Source: Escherichia phage NicoleGrasset_Bas72 | Strand: one strand, 5' to 3' | Sequence record: PQ850621.1 | Length of the DNA: 43,746 bases | Shown: positions 24,485-31,274 of the stretch, piece by piece | Numbering within the stretch: the stretch's first letter is position 1 | How the letters are laid out: each line of letters opens with the position of its first letter | Program-made: the position numbers and the translations under genes | The notes under the pieces: model-generated | The model's input: the letters and a program-made list of their open reading frames with translations, nothing else | What the model was told of the DNA's origin: nothing | The model's database searches: none

Positions 24485-25905
24485 TTCTTACCTCGTCTCT
24501 TCATGTAATTAAGCAACTCTTCCTGTACCGATTTTTTCTCGTCCGTACGCGCGGCAACAACCTCGTCCAGCGTGTCTTTAGCGACGATATGATAGAGGAA
24601 CACCGGGCGCTCGTGTCCCGCCTGTTTCTGGCGGACCGGGCCTATGCGCTCAACAACCTGTAAATAGTGCTCAAGGTTCCACCCTTGCGAAATAAACGCC
24701 AGATGATGTCCGCCGTCCTGTAAATTCAAACCATGACCAGCTGACGCAGGATGCACGCATAAGATCTCAATTTCACCACGGTTCCACGCTTCCATCTGCT
24801 TATTACCCTTAACTCCTTTGGCAAACGCCTGTGCCTGCGGGAATCGCTTAAGGATGCGCTCCAGTTCGTGCTTGAACTGATAAGCCACCAGTAACGGCGC
24901 ACCTTGTAGCTCCTCAACAATTGACTCGAGCGCATCCAGTTTCGTGTCGTGCACTTTCTCCCAGTCTTTGGTTGCTTCTCCGTCGTCACCCGTCACATAC
25001 ACAGCACCGGAAGCAATCTGCAAACACTTAGACGTCTTCGCTGCCGCGTTAGCCGCTTCAACTTCCCCGCTCTCCAGTTCCGCGAATAACTTTTCCTCCA
25101 TATCGATGTACGCCTGACGCGCTTTCTTCGGCAGGTCGATTTCAACAGGTACGATAACCGGCGCTTCGCATCCGAACCACTCAGCGGCGTCAATCGTGAG
25201 ACTGATGTCCTTCATCTTCTGGTGGATTTCAGTATCCGCACCCGGGCGGGCGTGGTATTCGCGCGCCATAGCAGATTTGCCTTTCTGCACCGAGTTAAAC
25301 CAGCGGTCGGTGAATGCCGTGTACGAAGAACCGAGGCGCTCGCCCGCGTCGATAAACCAGTTCTGTCCCCACAAGTCCTTGAGGCCGTTAGGCGATGGTG
25401 TACCTGTCAGGTTGATAAAACGCTTAACCTTTCCGAACGCCACTCTACTAAGCGCCTTCGCCCGCTTGCTGCCGCCTGAACGGCTGCGGAATGACTTCAG
25501 TTTCGTGCTTTCATCGGCAACGATAACGGTAAAAGGCCAGTCGTCTTTGCCGTAGTAGTCAATCAACCACTCTATTACCTCATAGTTCGTGCACACCACG
25601 TTAGCGTCCGACTCCAGCGCCGCGATGCGGCGCTTCTCTGAACCGGTCGCGTCTACGACACGCAGACATGGGAAATTCCACTTAGTTTGTTCCGCCGGCC
25701 ATGTGCCTGATGCAACGCGCAACGGGGCGAGGATTAACACGCGGTCCTCTTCTGTAAGCTGCCCGTTGCGGAACAGTCGGTTTAATGTCCACAGTACGCT
25801 GCCAGTCTTCCCGGCGCCCATGCTCGCCCAAATATTACAGCGATGGTGCCGCAACATGAACGAAGTCATTAGCTTCTGGTATTCGCGCCTTTGAAACTTA
25901 CTCAT
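24481..25905 (-). CDS. SNF2/DEAD-like helicase
   Basis: Walker A MGAGKTGS, DExx box VIVADESTKLK, helicase C-terminal region. Confidence 0.7.
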   Translation of the reverse strand: MSKFQRREYQKLMTSFMLRHHRCNIWASMGAGKTGSVLWTLNRLFRNGQLTEEDRVLILAPLRVASGTWPAEQTKWNFPCLRVVDATGSEKRRIAALESDANVVCTNYEVIEWLIDYYGKDDWPFTVIVADESTKLKSFRSRSGGSKRAKALSRVAFGKVKRFINLTGTPSPNGLKDLWGQNWFIDAGERLGSSYTAFTDRWFNSVQKGKSAMAREYHARPGADTEIHQKMKDISLTIDAAEWFGCEAPVIVPVEIDLPKKARQAYIDMEEKLFAELESGEVEAANAAAKTSKCLQIASGAVYVTGDDGEATKDWEKVHDTKLDALESIVEELQGAPLLVAYQFKHELERILKRFPQAQAFAKGVKGNKQMEAWNRGEIEILCVHPASAGHGLNLQDGGHHLAFISQGWNLEHYLQVVERIGPVRQKQAGHERPVFLYHIVAKDTLDEVVAARTDEKKSVQEELLNYMKRRGKK

Positions 25906-26880: not shown

Positions 26881-26910
26881 TTCTCAATTCCTTATATTGT
26901 TGGTGTGTGA

Positions 26911-27198
26911 TTAACTATAATAGCCCGCTATTAGGTCGTCAACCTGTTTAAACGAACCAACGACAAAAACATTTGCACCACGTTTACGCATCCGCTCGTG
27001 CTCTCGTAACTGGTGCGGGTCCGGCTTCGTGTTTTCGTCTTTCTTAACCTCGACGAACCAGATGATGCCACCAGGGAGAATTACCAGCAGGTCGGGGGCG
27101 CCGGAGCGCCCCTCATAAGACAGCTTACGAACGAGGCCACCAATGGCCTCGAATCGCTCTTTTGCGTATTTCTGCACGCGCCCCTCAGGCGTACTCAT
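26911..27198 (-). CDS. VRR-NUC domain nuclease (PD-(D/E)xK)
   Basis: 95 aa; GAPDLLVI...VEVKK pattern matches the D...E-x-K core of VRR-NUC; GAGGGG SD. Confidence 0.6.
   Translation of the reverse strand: MSTPEGRVQKYAKERFEAIGGLVRKLSYEGRSGAPDLLVILPGGIIWFVEVKKDENTKPDPHQLREHERMRKRGANVFVVGSFKQVDDLIAGYYS
26914..26942 (-). promoter_or_regulatory. sigma70-like promoter TTGACG-N17-TATAGT
   Basis: On minus strand; within the 3' end of the VRR-NUC gene; upstream of 26689-26880 and the methyltransferase. Confidence 0.5.
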
Positions 27199-27279
27199 CT
27201 ATACACCCCTCACGTTTCGTATGTTCAGTACCGCAGCGCGGACAGATTCGACAGTCTTCTTCATAAAACCAGTAGATTT

Positions 27280-27411
27280 TCATTCCAGCACCCACAGATA
27301 AATTGCGATGAACATGCCCAATATGGCAACCATCATGCCGTATTGACCCTCGTGACAGTAGACACCGGCAGCAAATCCCGCCAGTACCGCGATAATCAGT
27401 TTACTTGGCAT
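27280..27411 (-). CDS. small hydrophobic membrane peptide (43 aa), putative
   Basis: AAGGAG SD 9 nt upstream; MPSKLIIAVLAGFAAGVYCHEGQYGMMVAILGMFIAIYLWVLE; not in ORF track. Confidence 0.35.
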   Translation of the reverse strand: MPSKLIIAVLAGFAAGVYCHEGQYGMMVAILGMFIAIYLWVLE

Positions 27412-28096
27412 CTCTACATTCTCCTTCAGGCCACCTATTAGGAAAAGACGGTATATGTGAAACTTCTCTCGCCGCTTTTATTCTTTTAATGGCGGGACCT
27501 ATCTCCGTAACCATTTCAATGAATGTAAACCGGTGTCCTCTGGTAAGATTACATGTCTGACAACAAGAAACGCAGTTAGATACTATGTGCCCGCTTGTAT
27601 TATCTATGCGGTCTACCCCGACTTTTGTAGTGCTTCCGCAATAATGGCATGGCTGTGATATTAGTTTAATAACGCTTTCCAGTGTTAAATCGCAGATAAG
27701 CCCTTTTCCTGAATCTGCTCTTTTGTATCCTAACAAAAGCGCGTACGCCCGCGTCCTTTGGTCCTTATTCACCAGTTCCCTGCGTTGCTTGTTGAGACAC
27801 TCCCGGCAATCTTTCCTGATATGAGAGCCATTACTTTTATTTCCTTTCCTGAAGTTTTCCTCTGTTAAAGGTTTTACCTCCCCACACTTTCTGCATTTAA
27901 CAGGCTTCCCAGTGAAAACATACCAAGGGCTTTCTCGTCTGGATTTACCTTGTAATTTAAGTTTTTCGTCATACTTTTCCTTCCTGTTAGCATTTACACA
28001 CTCTTTACACCAGCGTTGCAGCCCGAGGCGCGTTGACTTTGAAAAATACTCTGTAGTCGCCGGTTTATCTTCGCCGCATCTTGAACACTTTTTCAT
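27401..28096 (-). CDS. HNH endonuclease with N-terminal zinc-binding Cys pairs
   Basis: CxxC pairs (CSRCG, CKEC, CRKCG) and HNH core HYCGSTTKVGVDRIDNTSGHIVSNCVSCCQTCN; ATG at 28096 with GGAG SD. Confidence 0.7.
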   Translation of the reverse strand: MKKCSRCGEDKPATTEYFSKSTRLGLQRWCKECVNANRKEKYDEKLKLQGKSRRESPWYVFTGKPVKCRKCGEVKPLTEENFRKGNKSNGSHIRKDCRECLNKQRRELVNKDQRTRAYALLLGYKRADSGKGLICDLTLESVIKLISQPCHYCGSTTKVGVDRIDNTSGHIVSNCVSCCQTCNLTRGHRFTFIEMVTEIGPAIKRIKAAREVSHIPSFPNRWPEGECRDAK

Positions 28097-28106
28097 TAAT
28101 AACTCC

Positions 28107-28141
28107 AAAAAAAAATACCGACATAGCCATTATATCGGTAT
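28107..28141 (-). terminator. rho-independent terminator (minus strand) between DNA polymerase and HNH genes
   Basis: On minus strand: stem ATACCGA/TCGGTAT with 13-nt loop, followed by a 9-nt U-run. Confidence 0.6.
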
Positions 28142-28173
28142 TTACATTTTCTACAACGTATTTCCTAAATCTA

Positions 28174-30354
28174 CTACTTGGCGTATCTGTACATTTCGCT
28201 ACCTTCTGCTACAAGAGGGAACCCCTCCGCCCATTCTGGTAATTCGCACATCAATCGCTCAAGCTCTGCGACATTGTATTCCGGCGTATCTGGAGTTTCG
28301 CAGATAATCTCATCGTGGACATGAAGTACAATTGGATAACCGTTTGCTTCTACGTTCAGCAGCGCGTTGGCCAGCAAATCACGGCACAACGCCTGAGTGC
28401 AGTTTTCCACCAGTTTACCAGAGTAGGTGTACTGGAAGCCCCACTGCCGGGTTAACTGGTTTTCGCCCTGGTACTTGATGCGCACGTTAGTAGACACCTT
28501 TCCATCTTCGTCTGTCTCTTTCGACACACTTAATCCGACGCCCGGGTATGACATAACGCGACCCGACGGCAACGTCATGCGCAACCACCAGCCCGCGACT
28601 TTGTCGCCGTTGTTGTCTGTCTCTATGTTACGCGAAAACTTAACGCCTCGCGGTCCTGCGGTGAACTCTTTACCTGGATTGCGGATAGCGGCCATAGCTG
28701 CGTCTTCAATATCTCGCCAGAAAGCTACTGTTTCAGGGTGTGACTCTCGCCACATACGCTTGATAGCGTCACAGGTACGCCACACTTTCTTATCAAGAAT
28801 ATACGATGGTCGGTCATCCTTCTCCCCGGGTCGCGGCGGTCGCTTGGCTTCCTGAATACGTGCCCATTCATAGCCGCGTGCAGTAGCCGCCCAGATGTGG
28901 TCCGGGAAAGTACCGTCCATTGTTTTTGACATATCAACAAGGTCAAGTCCGAGGTTCTTAGCAAACTGAACGAAAGCGCCAACACCACCAGCGTAGCCGA
29001 GGCCAAGCTCGCAGGCTTTACCAATCTGGCGCAAGTCTTTGCGTTCCTTCTTAATGTAATCCGGCTCCATGCCGAACATCTTACCCGCGGTTACACAGTA
29101 AATGTCCAGCCCGGCGCGGAACGTATCTAGCGCGGTTTCTTCACCCGCCAGCCACGCAAGACCGCGGCCTTCGACGTTAGAGTAATCGGCGACGACAAAC
29201 TTATGCCCAGCTTCCGGTATAATGCAGCTACGAACGGTAGATGCCGTCAGCTTGGCTACGTCAAATCGGCGGTGCGCCCGGCCCTTAAGTAACGCTGAAA
29301 TGCCTTTATCCAGTTCATCATCGTGATAGTACCCACGCGCCAGGTTCTGTGGCTGGAAGCCTTTACCCGCGAACCGTAACGTACGCTTTGCCCCACCGTA
29401 CTGGATACAACCGCGGCGTCGGTCGTCCGACGAGCGGCCTAACAGCAGCGGGTTATATTTCGTGGACGCTGTTGACGCGGCCCCGAGGCGCATTTCGATA
29501 ATCATCCGGGCGTCGTCCGGTAAATCATCATCTGCCAACAGGTCGTTAAGCGTCGACTTCTGTGCATTGTGTATGCGGTGCGCGGGCGCAAGTTCACGCA
29601 GAATCGGAAGGAAGTCTTTACCGGTAAGCGAGCCGCCGTATTTACGTTGAGCTTCTTCCTGTAACTGTGCCTTGTGCTTCTCTACGGCTTCAATCGCGGC
29701 TTCCGCCAGTGCGACGTCAACCTTAAATCCGCGGTCGTTGATTAACTGGTCAAGTTCCAGTACACGGTCTTCGAACTCGGAGTTACCCCAACGCGGCAGC
29801 TTATGGAACACTTCACGCATCGCTGTGATGTCACTCACGGCATACTTGATAAACAGCGCCCACTCATCCGGGTGCGTTTCCGCGGTATAGCGGCGGATTT
29901 TGTAGTTCTTTGGCGTAGGTTTAGAAAAACGCTGAATCAGCGCCTTGCCGCGTTTGTCTTTCGCGTTGTCTGCAGACACGCCCAGCACTTCGCACAGCGC
30001 ATCGAGTGACCCCGGCAGCGCGTGACGAAACGCCCAAATCATCGTATCAATGGTGTTGCTTACGGGAATATCAAAGCCCCAGCAGTGTTTCATGATGAGC
30101 CTGTCGAACATTGAGCCGTTGTGCCACACCATCTTAATACGACTGTTCGGCTTAACCAGGCGGCGCAGTGCGCGGTGCAAATCACCCGGCATGTCGCTGC
30201 CGTCGGTGCAATCCCATACCCGCACAGGCTCGTCGTCAAAAGCATATGTGCAGATAAGCACTTCGGTAGTCGGGTGTTCGGCGTAAGCGTAGGAGCCGAC
30301 TTTCTTTAAATCGGCTTCGGAGAATGTTTCAAAGTCCAGGTATAAGTAGCTCAT
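28174..30354 (-). CDS. family A DNA polymerase with 3'-5' exonuclease domain
   Basis: Exo I-like YLDFETFS near N-terminus and motif C-like LHVHDEIICE near C-terminus; start at internal ATG 30354 with AAGGA SD. Confidence 0.75.
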   Translation of the reverse strand: MSYLYLDFETFSEADLKKVGSYAYAEHPTTEVLICTYAFDDEPVRVWDCTDGSDMPGDLHRALRRLVKPNSRIKMVWHNGSMFDRLIMKHCWGFDIPVSNTIDTMIWAFRHALPGSLDALCEVLGVSADNAKDKRGKALIQRFSKPTPKNYKIRRYTAETHPDEWALFIKYAVSDITAMREVFHKLPRWGNSEFEDRVLELDQLINDRGFKVDVALAEAAIEAVEKHKAQLQEEAQRKYGGSLTGKDFLPILRELAPAHRIHNAQKSTLNDLLADDDLPDDARMIIEMRLGAASTASTKYNPLLLGRSSDDRRRGCIQYGGAKRTLRFAGKGFQPQNLARGYYHDDELDKGISALLKGRAHRRFDVAKLTASTVRSCIIPEAGHKFVVADYSNVEGRGLAWLAGEETALDTFRAGLDIYCVTAGKMFGMEPDYIKKERKDLRQIGKACELGLGYAGGVGAFVQFAKNLGLDLVDMSKTMDGTFPDHIWAATARGYEWARIQEAKRPPRPGEKDDRPSYILDKKVWRTCDAIKRMWRESHPETVAFWRDIEDAAMAAIRNPGKEFTAGPRGVKFSRNIETDNNGDKVAGWWLRMTLPSGRVMSYPGVGLSVSKETDEDGKVSTNVRIKYQGENQLTRQWGFQYTYSGKLVENCTQALCRDLLANALLNVEANGYPIVLHVHDEIICETPDTPEYNVAELERLMCELPEWAEGFPLVAEGSEMYRYAK

Positions 30355-30506
30355 TTCTTTTTCCTTAAATCCAGTGCCTTCGTTTCGCTGAGTCTTATTT
30401 TCATACAATCACGGCAAATCCACACATGCCTGTACCCGGCGCGGTACTCATCCGCGTACCACGGAAGCGGTTTCATATATCGGTATACGTGCTTACAGAA
30501 AAACAT
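30351..30506 (-). CDS. small zinc-ribbon-like protein (51 aa), putative
   Basis: Cys pairs (MFFCKHV...ICRDC); stop overlaps polymerase ATG (ATGA); not in ORF track. Confidence 0.35.
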   Translation of the reverse strand: MFFCKHVYRYMKPLPWYADEYRAGYRHVWICRDCMKIRLSETKALDLRKKK

Positions 30507-30519
30507 GATTTTCGACCCT

Positions 30520-30548
30520 TAGTAAAAAGGCCCAATGAAGGGCCTTAG
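30520..30548 (-). terminator. terminator (minus strand) after DUF2815-like gene
   Basis: On minus strand: AAGGCCC ttcattg GGGCCTT then TTTTTAC. Confidence 0.5.
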
Positions 30549-30565
30549 TTAAATTGATTCAGATA

Positions 30566-31192
30566 TTAACGGCGGCGACGTTCGCGGCGCGGTGCTTCAT
30601 CTTCTTCGTCGTCTTCCAGGTCGTCGACGCTTGCAGCAACTTTAGAGCCTCCAAACGCTTTACCTTCGCCAACGTACTTAATTGCCAGCAGGTTAACGCC
30701 GAGTACTTTATATTTCTGGCTGAACCAGATTTCAACGCTTACGTTAGCGACGCAGCCACTGTACACCTGTTCACCTTCAATCTGTTCGCCTTCTACATTG
30801 AAGTCTGGTTCTACCTGAGTTTCGCCTTTTTTAGATGTTACAATCAGAGGTTGTTTCTGCGCTTTCGCTTTGAAGTAGAAACCTTCCGGGAAGTCTTCAA
30901 ACGGATTGTCGCGCTCGGCGATGTCCTTAATCGCGCATTTATCCATGTGCTTGCCTTCGCCGTAGTTTGACTTCATCCATTTCTCTGCGGCGGCTGCACC
31001 CAACGCTTCTTCAACCACAGCGTAAACGGTGTCGTAGAGCGCGTCGATTTGAGCATGGTCAGACGGCAGGATGATAGTTGCGCTGTACTGGCCTTTAGTG
31101 ATTGAGCCGTCGTCGTTTTCACGGTCTTTTTCGCGTTCGAATACGTTAACCCATGCAGTGTTTACTTTACGCAGATTCAGTTTAATGCCCAT
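30566..31192 (-). CDS. DUF2815-like putative ssDNA-binding protein
   Basis: 208 aa with acidic DD/EE-rich then basic RRERRRR C-terminus; sits between nuclease and polymerase as in DUF2800/DUF2815/PolA modules; followed by terminator. Confidence 0.5.
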   Translation of the reverse strand: MGIKLNLRKVNTAWVNVFEREKDRENDDGSITKGQYSATIILPSDHAQIDALYDTVYAVVEEALGAAAAEKWMKSNYGEGKHMDKCAIKDIAERDNPFEDFPEGFYFKAKAQKQPLIVTSKKGETQVEPDFNVEGEQIEGEQVYSGCVANVSVEIWFSQKYKVLGVNLLAIKYVGEGKAFGGSKVAASVDDLEDDEEDEAPRRERRRR

Positions 31193-31245
31193 CTTGATTT
31201 CTCGCTTTTAAGTTTACTCCGGGAGCTGCCCGGCCAGTGATTAGA

Positions 31246-31274
31246 ACTATAATAGCTAACTATTCAGGTGTCAA
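31246..31274 (-). promoter_or_regulatory. sigma70-like promoter TTGACA-N17-TATAGT
   Basis: On minus strand; partly within the 3' end of 31260-31463; upstream of DUF2815-like gene. Confidence 0.55.

Follow-up and report, generated by a model that had tools for sequence, protein, structure and literature searches.

A PacI-like nuclease gene at the end of the DNA polymerase gene of Escherichia phage NicoleGrasset_Bas72: a probable homing endonuclease cassette

Between the family-A DNA polymerase and the VRR-NUC genes of Escherichia phage NicoleGrasset_Bas72 lies a gene for a nuclease, and the question raised by this locus is whether the gene is a working part of the replication module or a mobile element that has settled there. 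The DNA analysed, referred to below as the window, is the whole stretch of 43,746 nucleotides in record PQ850621.1. An earlier, sequence-only reading of the window took the gene for a mobile homing endonuclease, which is supported by empty sites in relatives, by the contrast between cassette and flank identity and by the nuclease fold of the product. In our view the locus very probably represents a homing endonuclease cassette of the free-standing kind, about 0.8 kb long and seated where the polymerase stop codon meets the overlapping start of the gene that follows. The positions of the nuclease gene and of the parts of its product are as follows.

27401-28096, minus strand: nuclease gene, 231 aa, in which two Zn-ribbon modules precede a PacI-like beta-beta-alpha-metal (HNH-superfamily) domain
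27998-28087, minus strand: Zn-ribbon module 1, residues 4-33 (C4, C7, C30, C33), placed by cysteines invariant in close homologues
27797-27895, minus strand: Zn-ribbon module 2, residues 68-100 (C68, C71, C97, C100), a repeat of module 1, placed by invariant cysteines
27530-27649, minus strand: catalytic core, residues 150-189, placed by (near-)invariant residues in 34 homologues and by alignment with PacI
28103-28106, minus strand: Shine-Dalgarno sequence GGAG, about 6-7 nt 5' of the ATG, read from the sequence

Translation starts at the ATG at 28096, and MK.C is the N-terminus of every homologue; a TTG at 28108 was ruled out as the start, as it sits inside a T-run. Of the span first reported for the gene (27401-28141), the 3' end at 27401 stands and the start does not, positions 28097-28141 being non-coding leader. 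The N-terminal Cys pairs described earlier are present as two CxxC...CxxC modules, but the core that follows is PacI-like; it contains a third Cys set (C150/C153/C179/C182), and all 12 cysteines are invariant in a seven-sequence alignment of close relatives. More distant homologues have a single copy of the Zn-ribbon module. The core motif, C150xxC153 ... D162-R163-x-D165-N166 ... G169-H170 ... N174 ... C179xxC182-N183 ... R186, aligns with residues 89-135 of PacI ('GVDRsDsfeGY..N...C..CN'), and Zn-ribbon module 1 aligns weakly with the N-terminal CxxC...CxxC of that enzyme. D162 and N183, at least 90% conserved in the 34 homologues, align with the D and N of the PacI 'VDR...CN', so that the metal-binding Asp before strand 1 and the Asn/His in the helix that characterize the HNH superfamily are both represented, together with a beta-beta-alpha-metal fold bearing a Cys4 zinc site. 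R163, invariant in the nuclease family, stands where the general-base His, the first H of H-N-H, would be expected; the protein retains the superfamily fold without this canonical residue. Residue 170 is His or Tyr across the 34 homologues. PacI binds its metal through one Asp and one Asn and uses a Tyr, in place of His, as general base (PMC4081073, the review from which the PacI residue roles were taken). By this analogy, on which the case for activity depends because the canonical general-base His is absent (R163), Asp and Asn would be the metal ligands, Arg would stand in place of the general-base His and His170 (Tyr elsewhere) would act as the base; the two N-terminal Zn-ribbon modules are presumably DNA-binding. 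The motif G-x-D-R-x-D ... G-Y ... N ... CxxC-N and the finding of PacI as the closest structure confirm a nuclease fold, predicted to be PacI-like rather than canonical HNH, the family assignment being drawn from PHROGs, a PDB sequence search and structure prediction. Pfam and NCBIfam scans of the nuclease protein returned no HNH family and only sub-threshold zinc-finger noise.

The anatomy of the insertion can be read against relatives that lack the gene, and involves the following features.

28174-28207, minus strand: variant DNA polymerase 3' tail, defined by alignment with empty alleles, which travels with the cassette
28175-28188, minus strand: left copy (AGATACGCCAAGTA), at the end of the polymerase gene, of a 14-nt imperfect direct repeat, from a repeat search
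27402-27415, minus strand: right copy of the repeat (AGAGATGCCAAGTA), from a repeat search and alignment
27280-27411, minus strand: 43-aa hydrophobic ORF, a resident backbone gene outside the mobile cassette (PHROG 10404, E = 4.5e-32)
27185-27295: 36-aa ORF, a small conserved backbone gene (PHROG 38225)

Compared with DUEC01 and Bas75, the window carries an 801-nt segment (28207-27407, minus strand) in place of 28 nt, a net gain of 773 nt; on the polymerase side both genomes match the window exactly as far as 28208, and on the other side almost exactly from 27406 onward. The flanks of the empty alleles are identical to within 7 nt, and the identity of the empty-site genomes otherwise extends over hundreds of bases to both sides. 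In the empty genomes, the stop of the polymerase gene and the start of the 43-aa ORF overlap, and in the window this overlap is duplicated as the 14-nt repeat, the two copies being 86% identical and spaced 773 nt apart, with a single copy in the empty alleles. The nuclease gene takes its last codons and its stop from the right copy, which also provides the ATG of the 43-aa ORF. This ORF overlaps the nuclease 3' end by 11 nt, in ATGCCAAGTAA, as had been noticed before, and has an annotation at the matching position in the HNH-less DUEC01, Bas75 and Bas70. Since an 11-nt overlap between the polymerase stop and the start of the next gene had existed before, the cassette includes a second copy of it, which leaves the polymerase complete and the 43-aa ORF still translationally coupled, now to the nuclease gene. 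The duplicated polymerase end accounts for the last ~14 nt only of the nuclease gene; that the whole nuclease C-terminus (PEGECRDAK) might be a fossil of the polymerase C-terminus (AEGQELKRYAK) was considered and rejected, 'EGE' being native to the nuclease since relatives without the downstream-gene overlap end in ...NRY(D/E)TGETK. The nuclease gene does lie between the polymerase and VRR-NUC genes, as stated earlier, but is not a direct neighbour of the latter, the 43-aa and 36-aa ORFs intervening.

The polymerase itself ends differently in the two kinds of allele, with ...AEGSEMYRYAK followed by TAG here and ...AEGQELKRYAK or AEGAEMKRYAK followed by TAA in the empty alleles, a change at about 12 of 27 positions. 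All four HNH-bearing genomes have this variant tail at 100% identity, and it is confined to alleles that carry, or apparently once carried, a nuclease gene, the 34-nt tail and a few downstream bases moving together with the cassette. A co-conversion tract of ~1 kb in the polymerase gene, considered since the window differs from DUEC01 at 28600-29199, was rejected: the 400 nt of polymerase beside the cassette are identical to DUEC01, and the HNH-less Bas75 and Bas70 have the same version of the divergent patch as the window. By these alignments, the patch is ordinary mosaicism and the co-transferred tract a short one (28174-28207). The empty-site junction is not palindromic, and a search of the window for a target-like empty-site sequence found none in this genome.

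The sequence-only reading had suggested that the gene might be variably present among relatives, and comparison bears this out. The nuclease gene and its leader occur in 3 of 324 related phage records, leaving ~99% without them, and the gene is found in 1 of 47 Guernseyvirinae-like IMG/VR loci; within the BASEL collection, Bas73 and Bas74 carry it and Bas70 and Bas75 do not. It is thus an optional gene between conserved ones, with precise empty sites in close relatives, and the conservation in all relatives with an essential role that would have spoken against mobility was not seen. An essential packaging or replication role is excluded because the gene lacks conservation and lies at a distance from the packaging genes; its place in the replication module, polA to VRR-NUC, also separates it from terminase-associated packaging HNH proteins of the HK97 gp74 / GVE2 type. 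Cassette and polymerase tail are 99.9-100% identical in the window, KMB35, Bas74 and the IMG/VR contig L015, against 95.1% (Bas74) and 80.2% (L015) for the adjacent 965 nt of polymerase, and the 500 nt beside the cassette in Bas74 hold 42 mismatches, versus 1 over 759 nt of the cassette itself. Similarity between genomes is higher for the element than for its flanks, and the element has spread laterally.

The same position is used elsewhere. At least four other phage backgrounds have homologues, of 45-64% identity, immediately behind the polA stop, among them Dhillonvirus, where 26 of 158 records have one directly 3' of the polA stop (about 84% do not), and three metagenomic backbones (L006/L017, L007/L016 and L018). 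Empty sites were found for three of these, in Dhillonvirus, for the L007 type (L074) and for the L016 type (L082). The Dhillonvirus EP23 has an empty allele with exactly the polymerase tail of occupied alleles, so the rewritten tail is not always needed for, or diagnostic of, immunity. In four other Kagunavirus genomes, the junction is occupied by an unrelated HNH_3/AP2 nuclease gene; two phages (the Ro145 phages) show an apparent loss footprint there, and a frame-disrupted relative of the nuclease is present in phage 'bob' (P0009). Judged from these alleles, the junction at the end of the polymerase gene is an insertion hot spot.

The cassette also brings its own leader, which contains the following elements.

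28107-28173, minus strand: cassette leader, absent from empty-site relatives
28171-28173, minus strand: second in-frame TAG
28151-28163, minus strand: conserved box AAATACGTTGTAG, with one occurrence in the window
28151-28156 and 28129-28134, minus strand: promoter-like pair TTGTAG and TATAAT, with 16 nt between
28113-28143, minus strand: hairpin of 13 bp with 3 G-C pairs and a 5-nt loop, from a terminator scan and folding
28107-28115, minus strand: T9 run after the hairpin, directly abutting GGAG

A hairpin with a 9-U run abutting the Shine-Dalgarno sequence of the nuclease gene had been described and is present, with the stem-loop and immediate U-run of an intrinsic (Rho-independent) terminator. 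It had been described as a strong terminator of the replication operon behind which the gene was inserted; it is instead part of the inserted cassette and absent from HNH-less relatives, and a strong terminator at this point would be polar on the downstream replication genes. Folded alone, the hairpin reaches -14.1 kcal/mol (z = -4.8, with 0 of 200 shuffles equally stable). Terminator-like matches as a class are not enriched in this region (9 found versus 10.6 expected from shuffles), and the hairpin is therefore supported by how strong it is in itself and by its recurrence in homologous cassettes: when each cassette is folded independently, the hairpin and U-run reappear in all six lineages, with differing stem sequences (z -4.4 to -9.4), and the cassettes L006, L017, L016 and L007 have the same leader layout with other stem sequences. 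Termination efficiency is uncertain, since the hairpin has only 3 G-C pairs. A match to the Rfam family STnc240 ('Enterobacterial sRNA') over 28106-28173 was set aside as generic terminator resemblance, scoring 27 bits versus a gathering score of 55, with an E value of 0.23 on 1.7 kb and no significance on the whole window. The promoter-like pair is conserved in position and spacing (16-17 nt) in five cassettes; the Dhillonvirus cassette has the hairpin and U-run and lacks such a promoter, and a sigma-70 scan did not call an internal leader promoter, the -35 matching at 3 of 6 bases. A promoter inside the terminator is kept here as a hypothesis, drawn from the conserved spacing and position. 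The hairpin and U-run carried by the cassette would probably limit read-through from the polymerase gene into a potentially toxic one, and a sigma-70-like promoter with its -10 within the hairpin may restart transcription.

These features suggest how the element would move. During mixed infection, the enzyme would cut the uninterrupted junction at the polymerase end of an HNH-less phage, and repair templated by the HNH-bearing genome would bring the cassette, with a short flank, into the genome that was cut; the carrier would be protected by the splitting of the junction through the insertion and by the rewriting of the last eight polymerase codons. Three other explanations have been weighed against homing. 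The one that survives best, though we consider it improbable, is a nuclease for competition or host takeover that cuts host or rival-phage DNA at many sites and was gained as a moron by ordinary recombination. The closest structure is indeed a restriction enzyme, PacI, the KMB35 record labels the gene 'restriction endonuclease', and 2 of 6 HmuI-like free-standing HNH enzymes excluded rival phages in Skunavirus assays (PMC12724721); random moron gain, however, leaves unexplained why four or five unrelated backbones have the insertion at one and the same nucleotide position, just behind their polA stop. The cassette has no linked methylase or other self-protection gene, and the downstream C5-methylase is a backbone gene that is also found in HNH-less phages. 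This explanation moreover overlaps with homing, exclusion of rival markers and homing being two faces of one activity.

An accessory, non-selfish nuclease of replication or recombination, such as an endonuclease VII-like junction resolvase acting alongside the polymerase and VRR-NUC, is very improbable. The gene always lies in the replication module, polA to VRR-NUC, in several genera, and 'endonuclease VII' is the label of its best PHROG and of the Bas73 and Bas74 records; yet the DHDH motif of the T4 endonuclease VII family (D40, H41, H43; PMC6083498) is replaced here by D162-R-I-D-N, and the nuclease protein has no match to Pfam Endonuclease_7 at E <= 0.1. Such a role also fits poorly with the lack of the gene in most Kagunaviruses and Dhillonviruses, whose flanking genes are intact and precisely joined, with the discordance between cassette and flank identity and with the filling of the same slot by the HNH_3/AP2 gene in other phages. 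Just as doubtful is an inactive relic, a decaying homing endonuclease that has lost DNA cutting and merely persists: the missing general-base His (R163), the rarity of the gene in the population and the decay or loss seen in 'bob' and the Ro145 footprint point that way, but the ORF is intact, the metal, Zn and proposed base residues are conserved in the 34 homologues down to about 25% identity, Arg for His is shared with the active enzyme PacI, and a near-identical cassette in four divergent backgrounds indicates recent spread.

Homing thus stays the preferred reading, and it can be extended, tentatively and with less than even chances, to three propositions taken jointly. First, a PacI-type homing lineage, with Arg for the general-base His and a His/Tyr base, may be specialised on the family-A polymerase stop junction in at least four to five siphovirus backbones. 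Second, each member would be a self-contained expression unit with its promoter -10 inside the loop of an intrinsic terminator, so that read-through from the polymerase gene would be stopped and the cassette's own transcripts, which do not include the 5' hairpin arm, would escape. Third, the Kagunavirus junction may cycle between the PacI-like gene, the HNH_3/AP2 gene and the footprint allele, with one shared rewritten and presumably cleavage-resistant tail. If true, a single nucleotide position would hold a natural record of a full cycle of invasion, replacement and loss.

Nothing fundamental is altered by these findings, as phages commonly carry free-standing HNH homing endonucleases, and PacI-like examples have been described before. 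They correct two database labels ('endonuclease VII' and 'restriction endonuclease') and an over-extended start codon, and define the mobile unit to the nucleotide. The near-isogenic filled (Bas73, Bas74) and empty (Bas70, Bas75) BASEL phages offer a clean test system, which includes two unrelated nuclease genes competing for one site and an apparent footprint allele, and which would allow homing, the co-conversion of flanks and the exclusion of markers to be measured in small siphoviruses of interest as phage-therapy candidates. Elements of this type influence where recombination boundaries fall, and in a phage cocktail they could pass from one member to another.

Among known systems, PacI (PDB 3ldy/3m7k) shares the core motif G-x-D-R-x-D...G-(Y/H)...N...CxxC-N, with Arg for the general-base His (PMC4081073), and the Cys4 zinc sites, including the N-terminal CxxC...CxxC. 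PacI is, however, a 142-aa bacterial type IIP homodimer that cuts the palindrome TTAATTAA, whereas the present nuclease is a phage-encoded protein of 231 aa whose N-terminal Zn-ribbon is duplicated and whose proposed base is His where PacI has Tyr, and its gene behaves as a mobile one. F-CphI and T4 endonuclease VII-motif enzymes likewise combine a beta-beta-alpha-metal fold with a CxxC...CxxC zinc site and a free-standing gene beside a conserved target gene, but their DHDH (catalytic H41, H43) is DRID in the present nuclease (PMC6083498). The PacI-like free-standing HNH genes of lactococcal Skunavirus phages likewise vary in presence, have a fixed place of insertion and have been read as homing endonucleases (PMC12724721); the likeness is one of description, and they differ in being 2 of 268 genes, classified by HHpred only and lying in the morphogenesis module of Gram-positive phages. 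The free-standing HNH genes of T-even phages, for example T4 MobE, are optional genes between conserved nucleotide or replication genes, and are expected to cut the gene-less allele and to be copied in with their flanks (PMC2790892; PMC6083498). Compared with the MobE type, the present element has a PacI-like catalytic subtype, resides in small siphoviruses and is inserted exactly on a stop/start overlap, which it duplicates, and it shares with intronless homing a sporadic distribution, precise empty sites and short co-transferred flanks.

Nearly all of the 324 phage records matched by a megablast search with positions 26900-28500 of the window belong to the Guernseyvirinae (Kagunavirus and Jerseyvirus), the top match being Escherichia phage vB-Eco-KMB35 (99.9%).

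Features of the polymerase to VRR-NUC interval
28174-30408, minus strand: family-A DNA polymerase (pol)
28143-28113, minus strand: 13-bp hairpin, from terminator scan and folding
28115-28107, minus strand: T9 run, abutting GGAG
27401-28096, minus strand: nuclease ORF, directly after pol
27280-27411, minus strand: 43-aa hydrophobic ORF, 3' of the nuclease ORF
27185-27295, minus strand: 36-aa Zn-ribbon ORF, 3' of the 43-aa ORF
26911-27198, minus strand: VRR-NUC, 3' of the 36-aa ORF
Beyond VRR-NUC, minus strand, in order: 63-aa ORF, C5-methylase, SNF2 helicase

The sequence-only reading had placed a free-standing HNH endonuclease gene at 27401-28141, between the polymerase and VRR-NUC genes. The ORF is real, but it starts at the ATG at 28096, read from the sequence with GGAG 7 nt before it, and 28097-28141 is leader; the N-terminus MK.C is common to all homologues. 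The interval was rightly named, with two small ORFs intervening before VRR-NUC, and the proposed overlap of the 43-aa ORF with the nuclease 3' end was confirmed (11 nt). The 36-aa CxxC...C mini-ORF (27185-27295, minus strand, PHROG 38225) is kept in relatives, and its label in KMB35, 'HNH endonuclease', is almost certainly a mislabel of a tiny Zn-ribbon peptide.

That the gene would be variably present among relatives is borne out by the presence/absence comparison: only three of the 324 records (KMB35, Bas73 and Bas74) cover it, the others aligning in two or three pieces that skip it. In the annotated empty alleles of DUEC01, Bas75 and Bas70, the pol stop and the 43-aa ORF start overlap (...CGC TAT GCT AAG TAA, with the ATG inside TATGCT). 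The window's pol tail reads AGC GAA ATG TAC AGA TAC GCC AAG TAG TAG, encoding ...EGSEMYRYAK rather than the ...EGQELKRYAK of empty alleles, and is followed by the leader and then the nuclease gene, whose last codons (...AGA GAT GCC AAG TAA) remake the overlap with the 43-aa ORF (ATGCCAAGTAA). Compared base by base, DUEC01 and Bas75 equal the window for 400-900 nt upstream from 28208, with the first mismatch at 28207, and are nearly identical to it downstream from 27406; 801 nt in the window (28207-27407) stand in place of 28 nt in the empty allele. At its two ends the insertion has the copies of an imperfect direct repeat of 14 nt, at 28175-28188 and 27402-27415 with a spacing of 773 nt; such a duplication would be expected of an insertion into a stop/start overlap that spares both genes.

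The cassette, that is the leader and nuclease gene, is far more uniform than its flanks. Together with 34 nt of pol tail it is 100% identical in KMB35, and cassette plus tail are 99.9% identical (one mismatch) in Bas74 and in the IMG/VR contig L015/L034, whereas over the neighbouring 965 nt of pol identity is 95.1% to Bas74 and 80.2% to L015, and the sequence downstream of the cassette is 86-96% identical. Base by base, Bas74 has 42 mismatches within the 500 nt adjoining the cassette; the tract common to the window and Bas74 extends from 28236 to 27371, and that common to the window and L015 from 28221 to 27398. This discordance between cassette and flank identity is evidence of mobility. In an IMG/VR survey of 80 loci encoding relatives of the pol C-terminus, the nuclease gene was found in one of 47 Guernseyvirinae-like loci and four of 17 Dhillonvirus loci. 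The window is also a fine-scale mosaic (patches 28600-29199, 24500-24999 and 30500-30900): its identity to DUEC01 is 100% across 29200-30099, and across 28600-29199 each 100 nt has 9-27 differences from DUEC01, the window siding there with KMB35, Bas75 and Bas70. Near the cassette, the polymerase gene is dense with recombination breakpoints.

Pfam and NCBIfam scans of the nuclease protein returned nothing significant; PHROGs placed it in phrog_1035, labelled 'endonuclease VII' (E = 1e-29), GenBank labels the gene 'endonuclease VII' or 'restriction endonuclease', and a sequence search of the PDB gave weak matches to an HNH domain (9k32) and to PacI (nuclease 'GVDRiDntsGHivsNcvscCqtCNltRg', PacI 'GVDRsDsfeGYspqNarlaCfiCNriKs'). 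An alignment of 33 gathered homologues has C150, Y152, C153, G160, D162, R163, D165, N166, G169, N174, C179, C182 and N183 near-invariant; at position 170 close relatives have His and distant ones Tyr. The AlphaFold2 model built from this alignment (mean pLDDT 86; >94 over the nuclease domain) has PacI as its best solved-structure match (Foldseek, E = 1.6e-4, probability 1.0). PacI holds a single metal ion with one Asp and one Asn and has a tyrosine, not a histidine, in the general-base position (PMC4081073). Because of this structural match and the PacI metal site and base, the protein is classed as a PacI-type beta-beta-alpha-metal nuclease; R163 replaces the canonical first His of HNH, and membership of the superfamily is by fold. 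A strict relationship to T4 endonuclease VII is ruled out, since DHDH, the defining motif of that group (PMC6083498), is replaced by DRID in this protein. Two CxxC-(22-25)-CxxC modules (residues 4-33 and 68-100) lie in the N-terminal half, in contrast to one in PacI and more distant homologues, and these presumably form the DNA-recognition part.

Homing endonucleases usually recognise a conserved target sequence, and the same site is occupied in other phage backbones. Dhillonvirus homologues (48-50% identity; JLBYU60, Gluttony, SO-1 and others) lie directly between the polA stop and VRR-NUC, in only 26 of 158 records; the empty site reads ...CGC AAG TAA TGA CAC, the pol TAA overlapping the VRR-NUC ATG, and the filled site ...CGC AAG TAG [leader-nuclease] ...ACA ATG ACA CC. 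Metagenomic homologues (P0002-P0005 and P0008; 45-64% identity) lie immediately 3' of polA in three further backbones, for two of which empty versions exist (L074 for the L007 type, L082 for the L016 type). The insertion point in every backbone follows ...AAG/AAA T(A/G)(A/G), which is the final codon of pol plus its stop. Since the right-hand side differs among backbones and the only common site sequence is the pol tail E-G-x-x-x-x-R-Y-x-K-stop, the comparison suggests that the nuclease recognises the conserved 3' end of pol.

The SEMYRYAK-type tail occurs in only nine phage records and two IMG/VR contigs. Three of the nine carry the PacI-like cassette, and three (XY2, VIPECOMC04 and VIPECOTPH05A), together with the IMG/VR contig L042 (UViG_3300045988_026856), have a different nuclease gene (L042:3121-3636) at exactly the junction of the pol stop with the start of the 43-aa ORF. 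Its 171-aa product, unrelated to the PacI-like one, matches Pfam HNH_3 (E = 3e-7) and weakly AP2; the gene begins with an ATG that overlaps the pol TGA, GGAGG and the ATGCTAAGTAAACT of the 43-aa ORF come from its 3' end, and the insertion likewise duplicates the ATGCTAA overlap. The remaining three records come from two phages (Ro145c2YLVW and Ro145clw) and have no nuclease gene: tail and TGA are followed by 12 nt (GAGGTGGTTCTA) and then ATGCTAAGTAAACTG (L104:1600-1680 in Ro145c2YLVW), an un-overlapped junction that looks like the deletion footprint of an occupied allele. The pol-to-VRR-NUC interval is a hot spot for nuclease genes. The tail could be plain hitch-hiking, and EP23, an empty Dhillonvirus allele, has exactly the pol tail of occupied alleles, so the rewritten tail is not universally required. 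SEMYRYAK is found in none of 45 empty Guernseyvirinae-like IMG/VR alleles, and the simplest reading is that the variant came with, or protects against, a junction-targeting nuclease and later passed between occupants. Escherichia phage EP-B-K_E2, a relative whose record is unannotated, has yet another optional nuclease gene, the third (168 aa; Pfam HNH_3, E = 2e-12), immediately 5' of VRR-NUC (L021:589-1095).

The hairpin and T9 run said to abut the nuclease SD were confirmed by scan and folding (z = -4.8; 0/200 shuffles as stable). All six cassette lineages have a 12-16-bp hairpin with a U-rich run just 5' of the SD, formed from differing stem sequences (z -4.4 to -9.4, no shuffle as stable), and the terminator-like element is thus well supported, by comparison among lineages, as a conserved cassette part. 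The five non-Dhillonvirus cassettes also keep the box AAAT(A/G)CGTTGnnG; 16-17 nt beyond its TTGnnG comes TATAAT, TATAGT or TATTGT, in the hairpin loop or 5' arm. A transcript from this putative promoter would be without the hairpin 5' arm and therefore unable to form the terminator; the promoter is only hypothetical, as a generic promoter scan made no call there. For the replication genes downstream, which are otherwise coupled to pol, some restart or read-through seems needed.

In KMB35 the T-run is T11, against T9 in the window, Bas74 and L015; the additional two T's bring an upstream ATG into frame, so that the nuclease annotated in KMB35 starts inside the hairpin (243 aa), and either a homopolymer sequencing error or real slippage could be the cause. 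The Rfam enterobacterial sRNA STnc240 matches 28106-28173 (minus strand), exactly the leader, over its full model (AUUUAG...AAAUACG, ACCGA/UCGGU hairpin and U-run in common), below threshold (27 bits against a gathering score of 55) and probably by chance. The leader box AGCGGAAA(T/C)GTTG is tandemly doubled (AGCGGAAATGTTGCTTTTAGCGGAAACGTTGGGC) in several Dhillonvirus cassettes (e.g. Gluttony, L014:1935-2000) and single in JLBYU60 (L010). Elsewhere in the backbone, promoter-like minus-strand sites at 31240-31274 and 26908-26942 have an extended motif in common (TTGAC(A/G)-N4-AATAG..CTATTATAGTT(C/A)AATCAC; -35 and -10 hexamers separated by 17 nt, the spacer holding a small AATAG/CTATT hairpin), which may represent a phage-specific promoter class.

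The original observation is real, and its reading as a mobile homing endonuclease is supported by these comparisons. Of modest interest are the PacI-type active site, the way in which polA stop junctions are consistently targeted in several phage genera, the conserved terminator-like leader, and the finding that a single nucleotide position hosts two unrelated nuclease genes as well as a footprint allele. The BASEL phages offer straightforward test material, Bas73 and Bas74 being filled and Bas70 and Bas75 empty; the paper releasing Bas73 and Bas74 treats Kagunavirus biology, and the passages in it matched by a term search make no mention of the nuclease element. By analogy, the cassette would function like the free-standing homing endonucleases of T-even phages, as passages on 'intronless homing' describe them (PMC6083498; PMC2790892). 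Lactococcal Skunavirus phages likewise have free-standing PacI-like HNH genes that are variably present at a fixed location, as the cassette is, and these have been read as homing endonucleases (PMC12724721).
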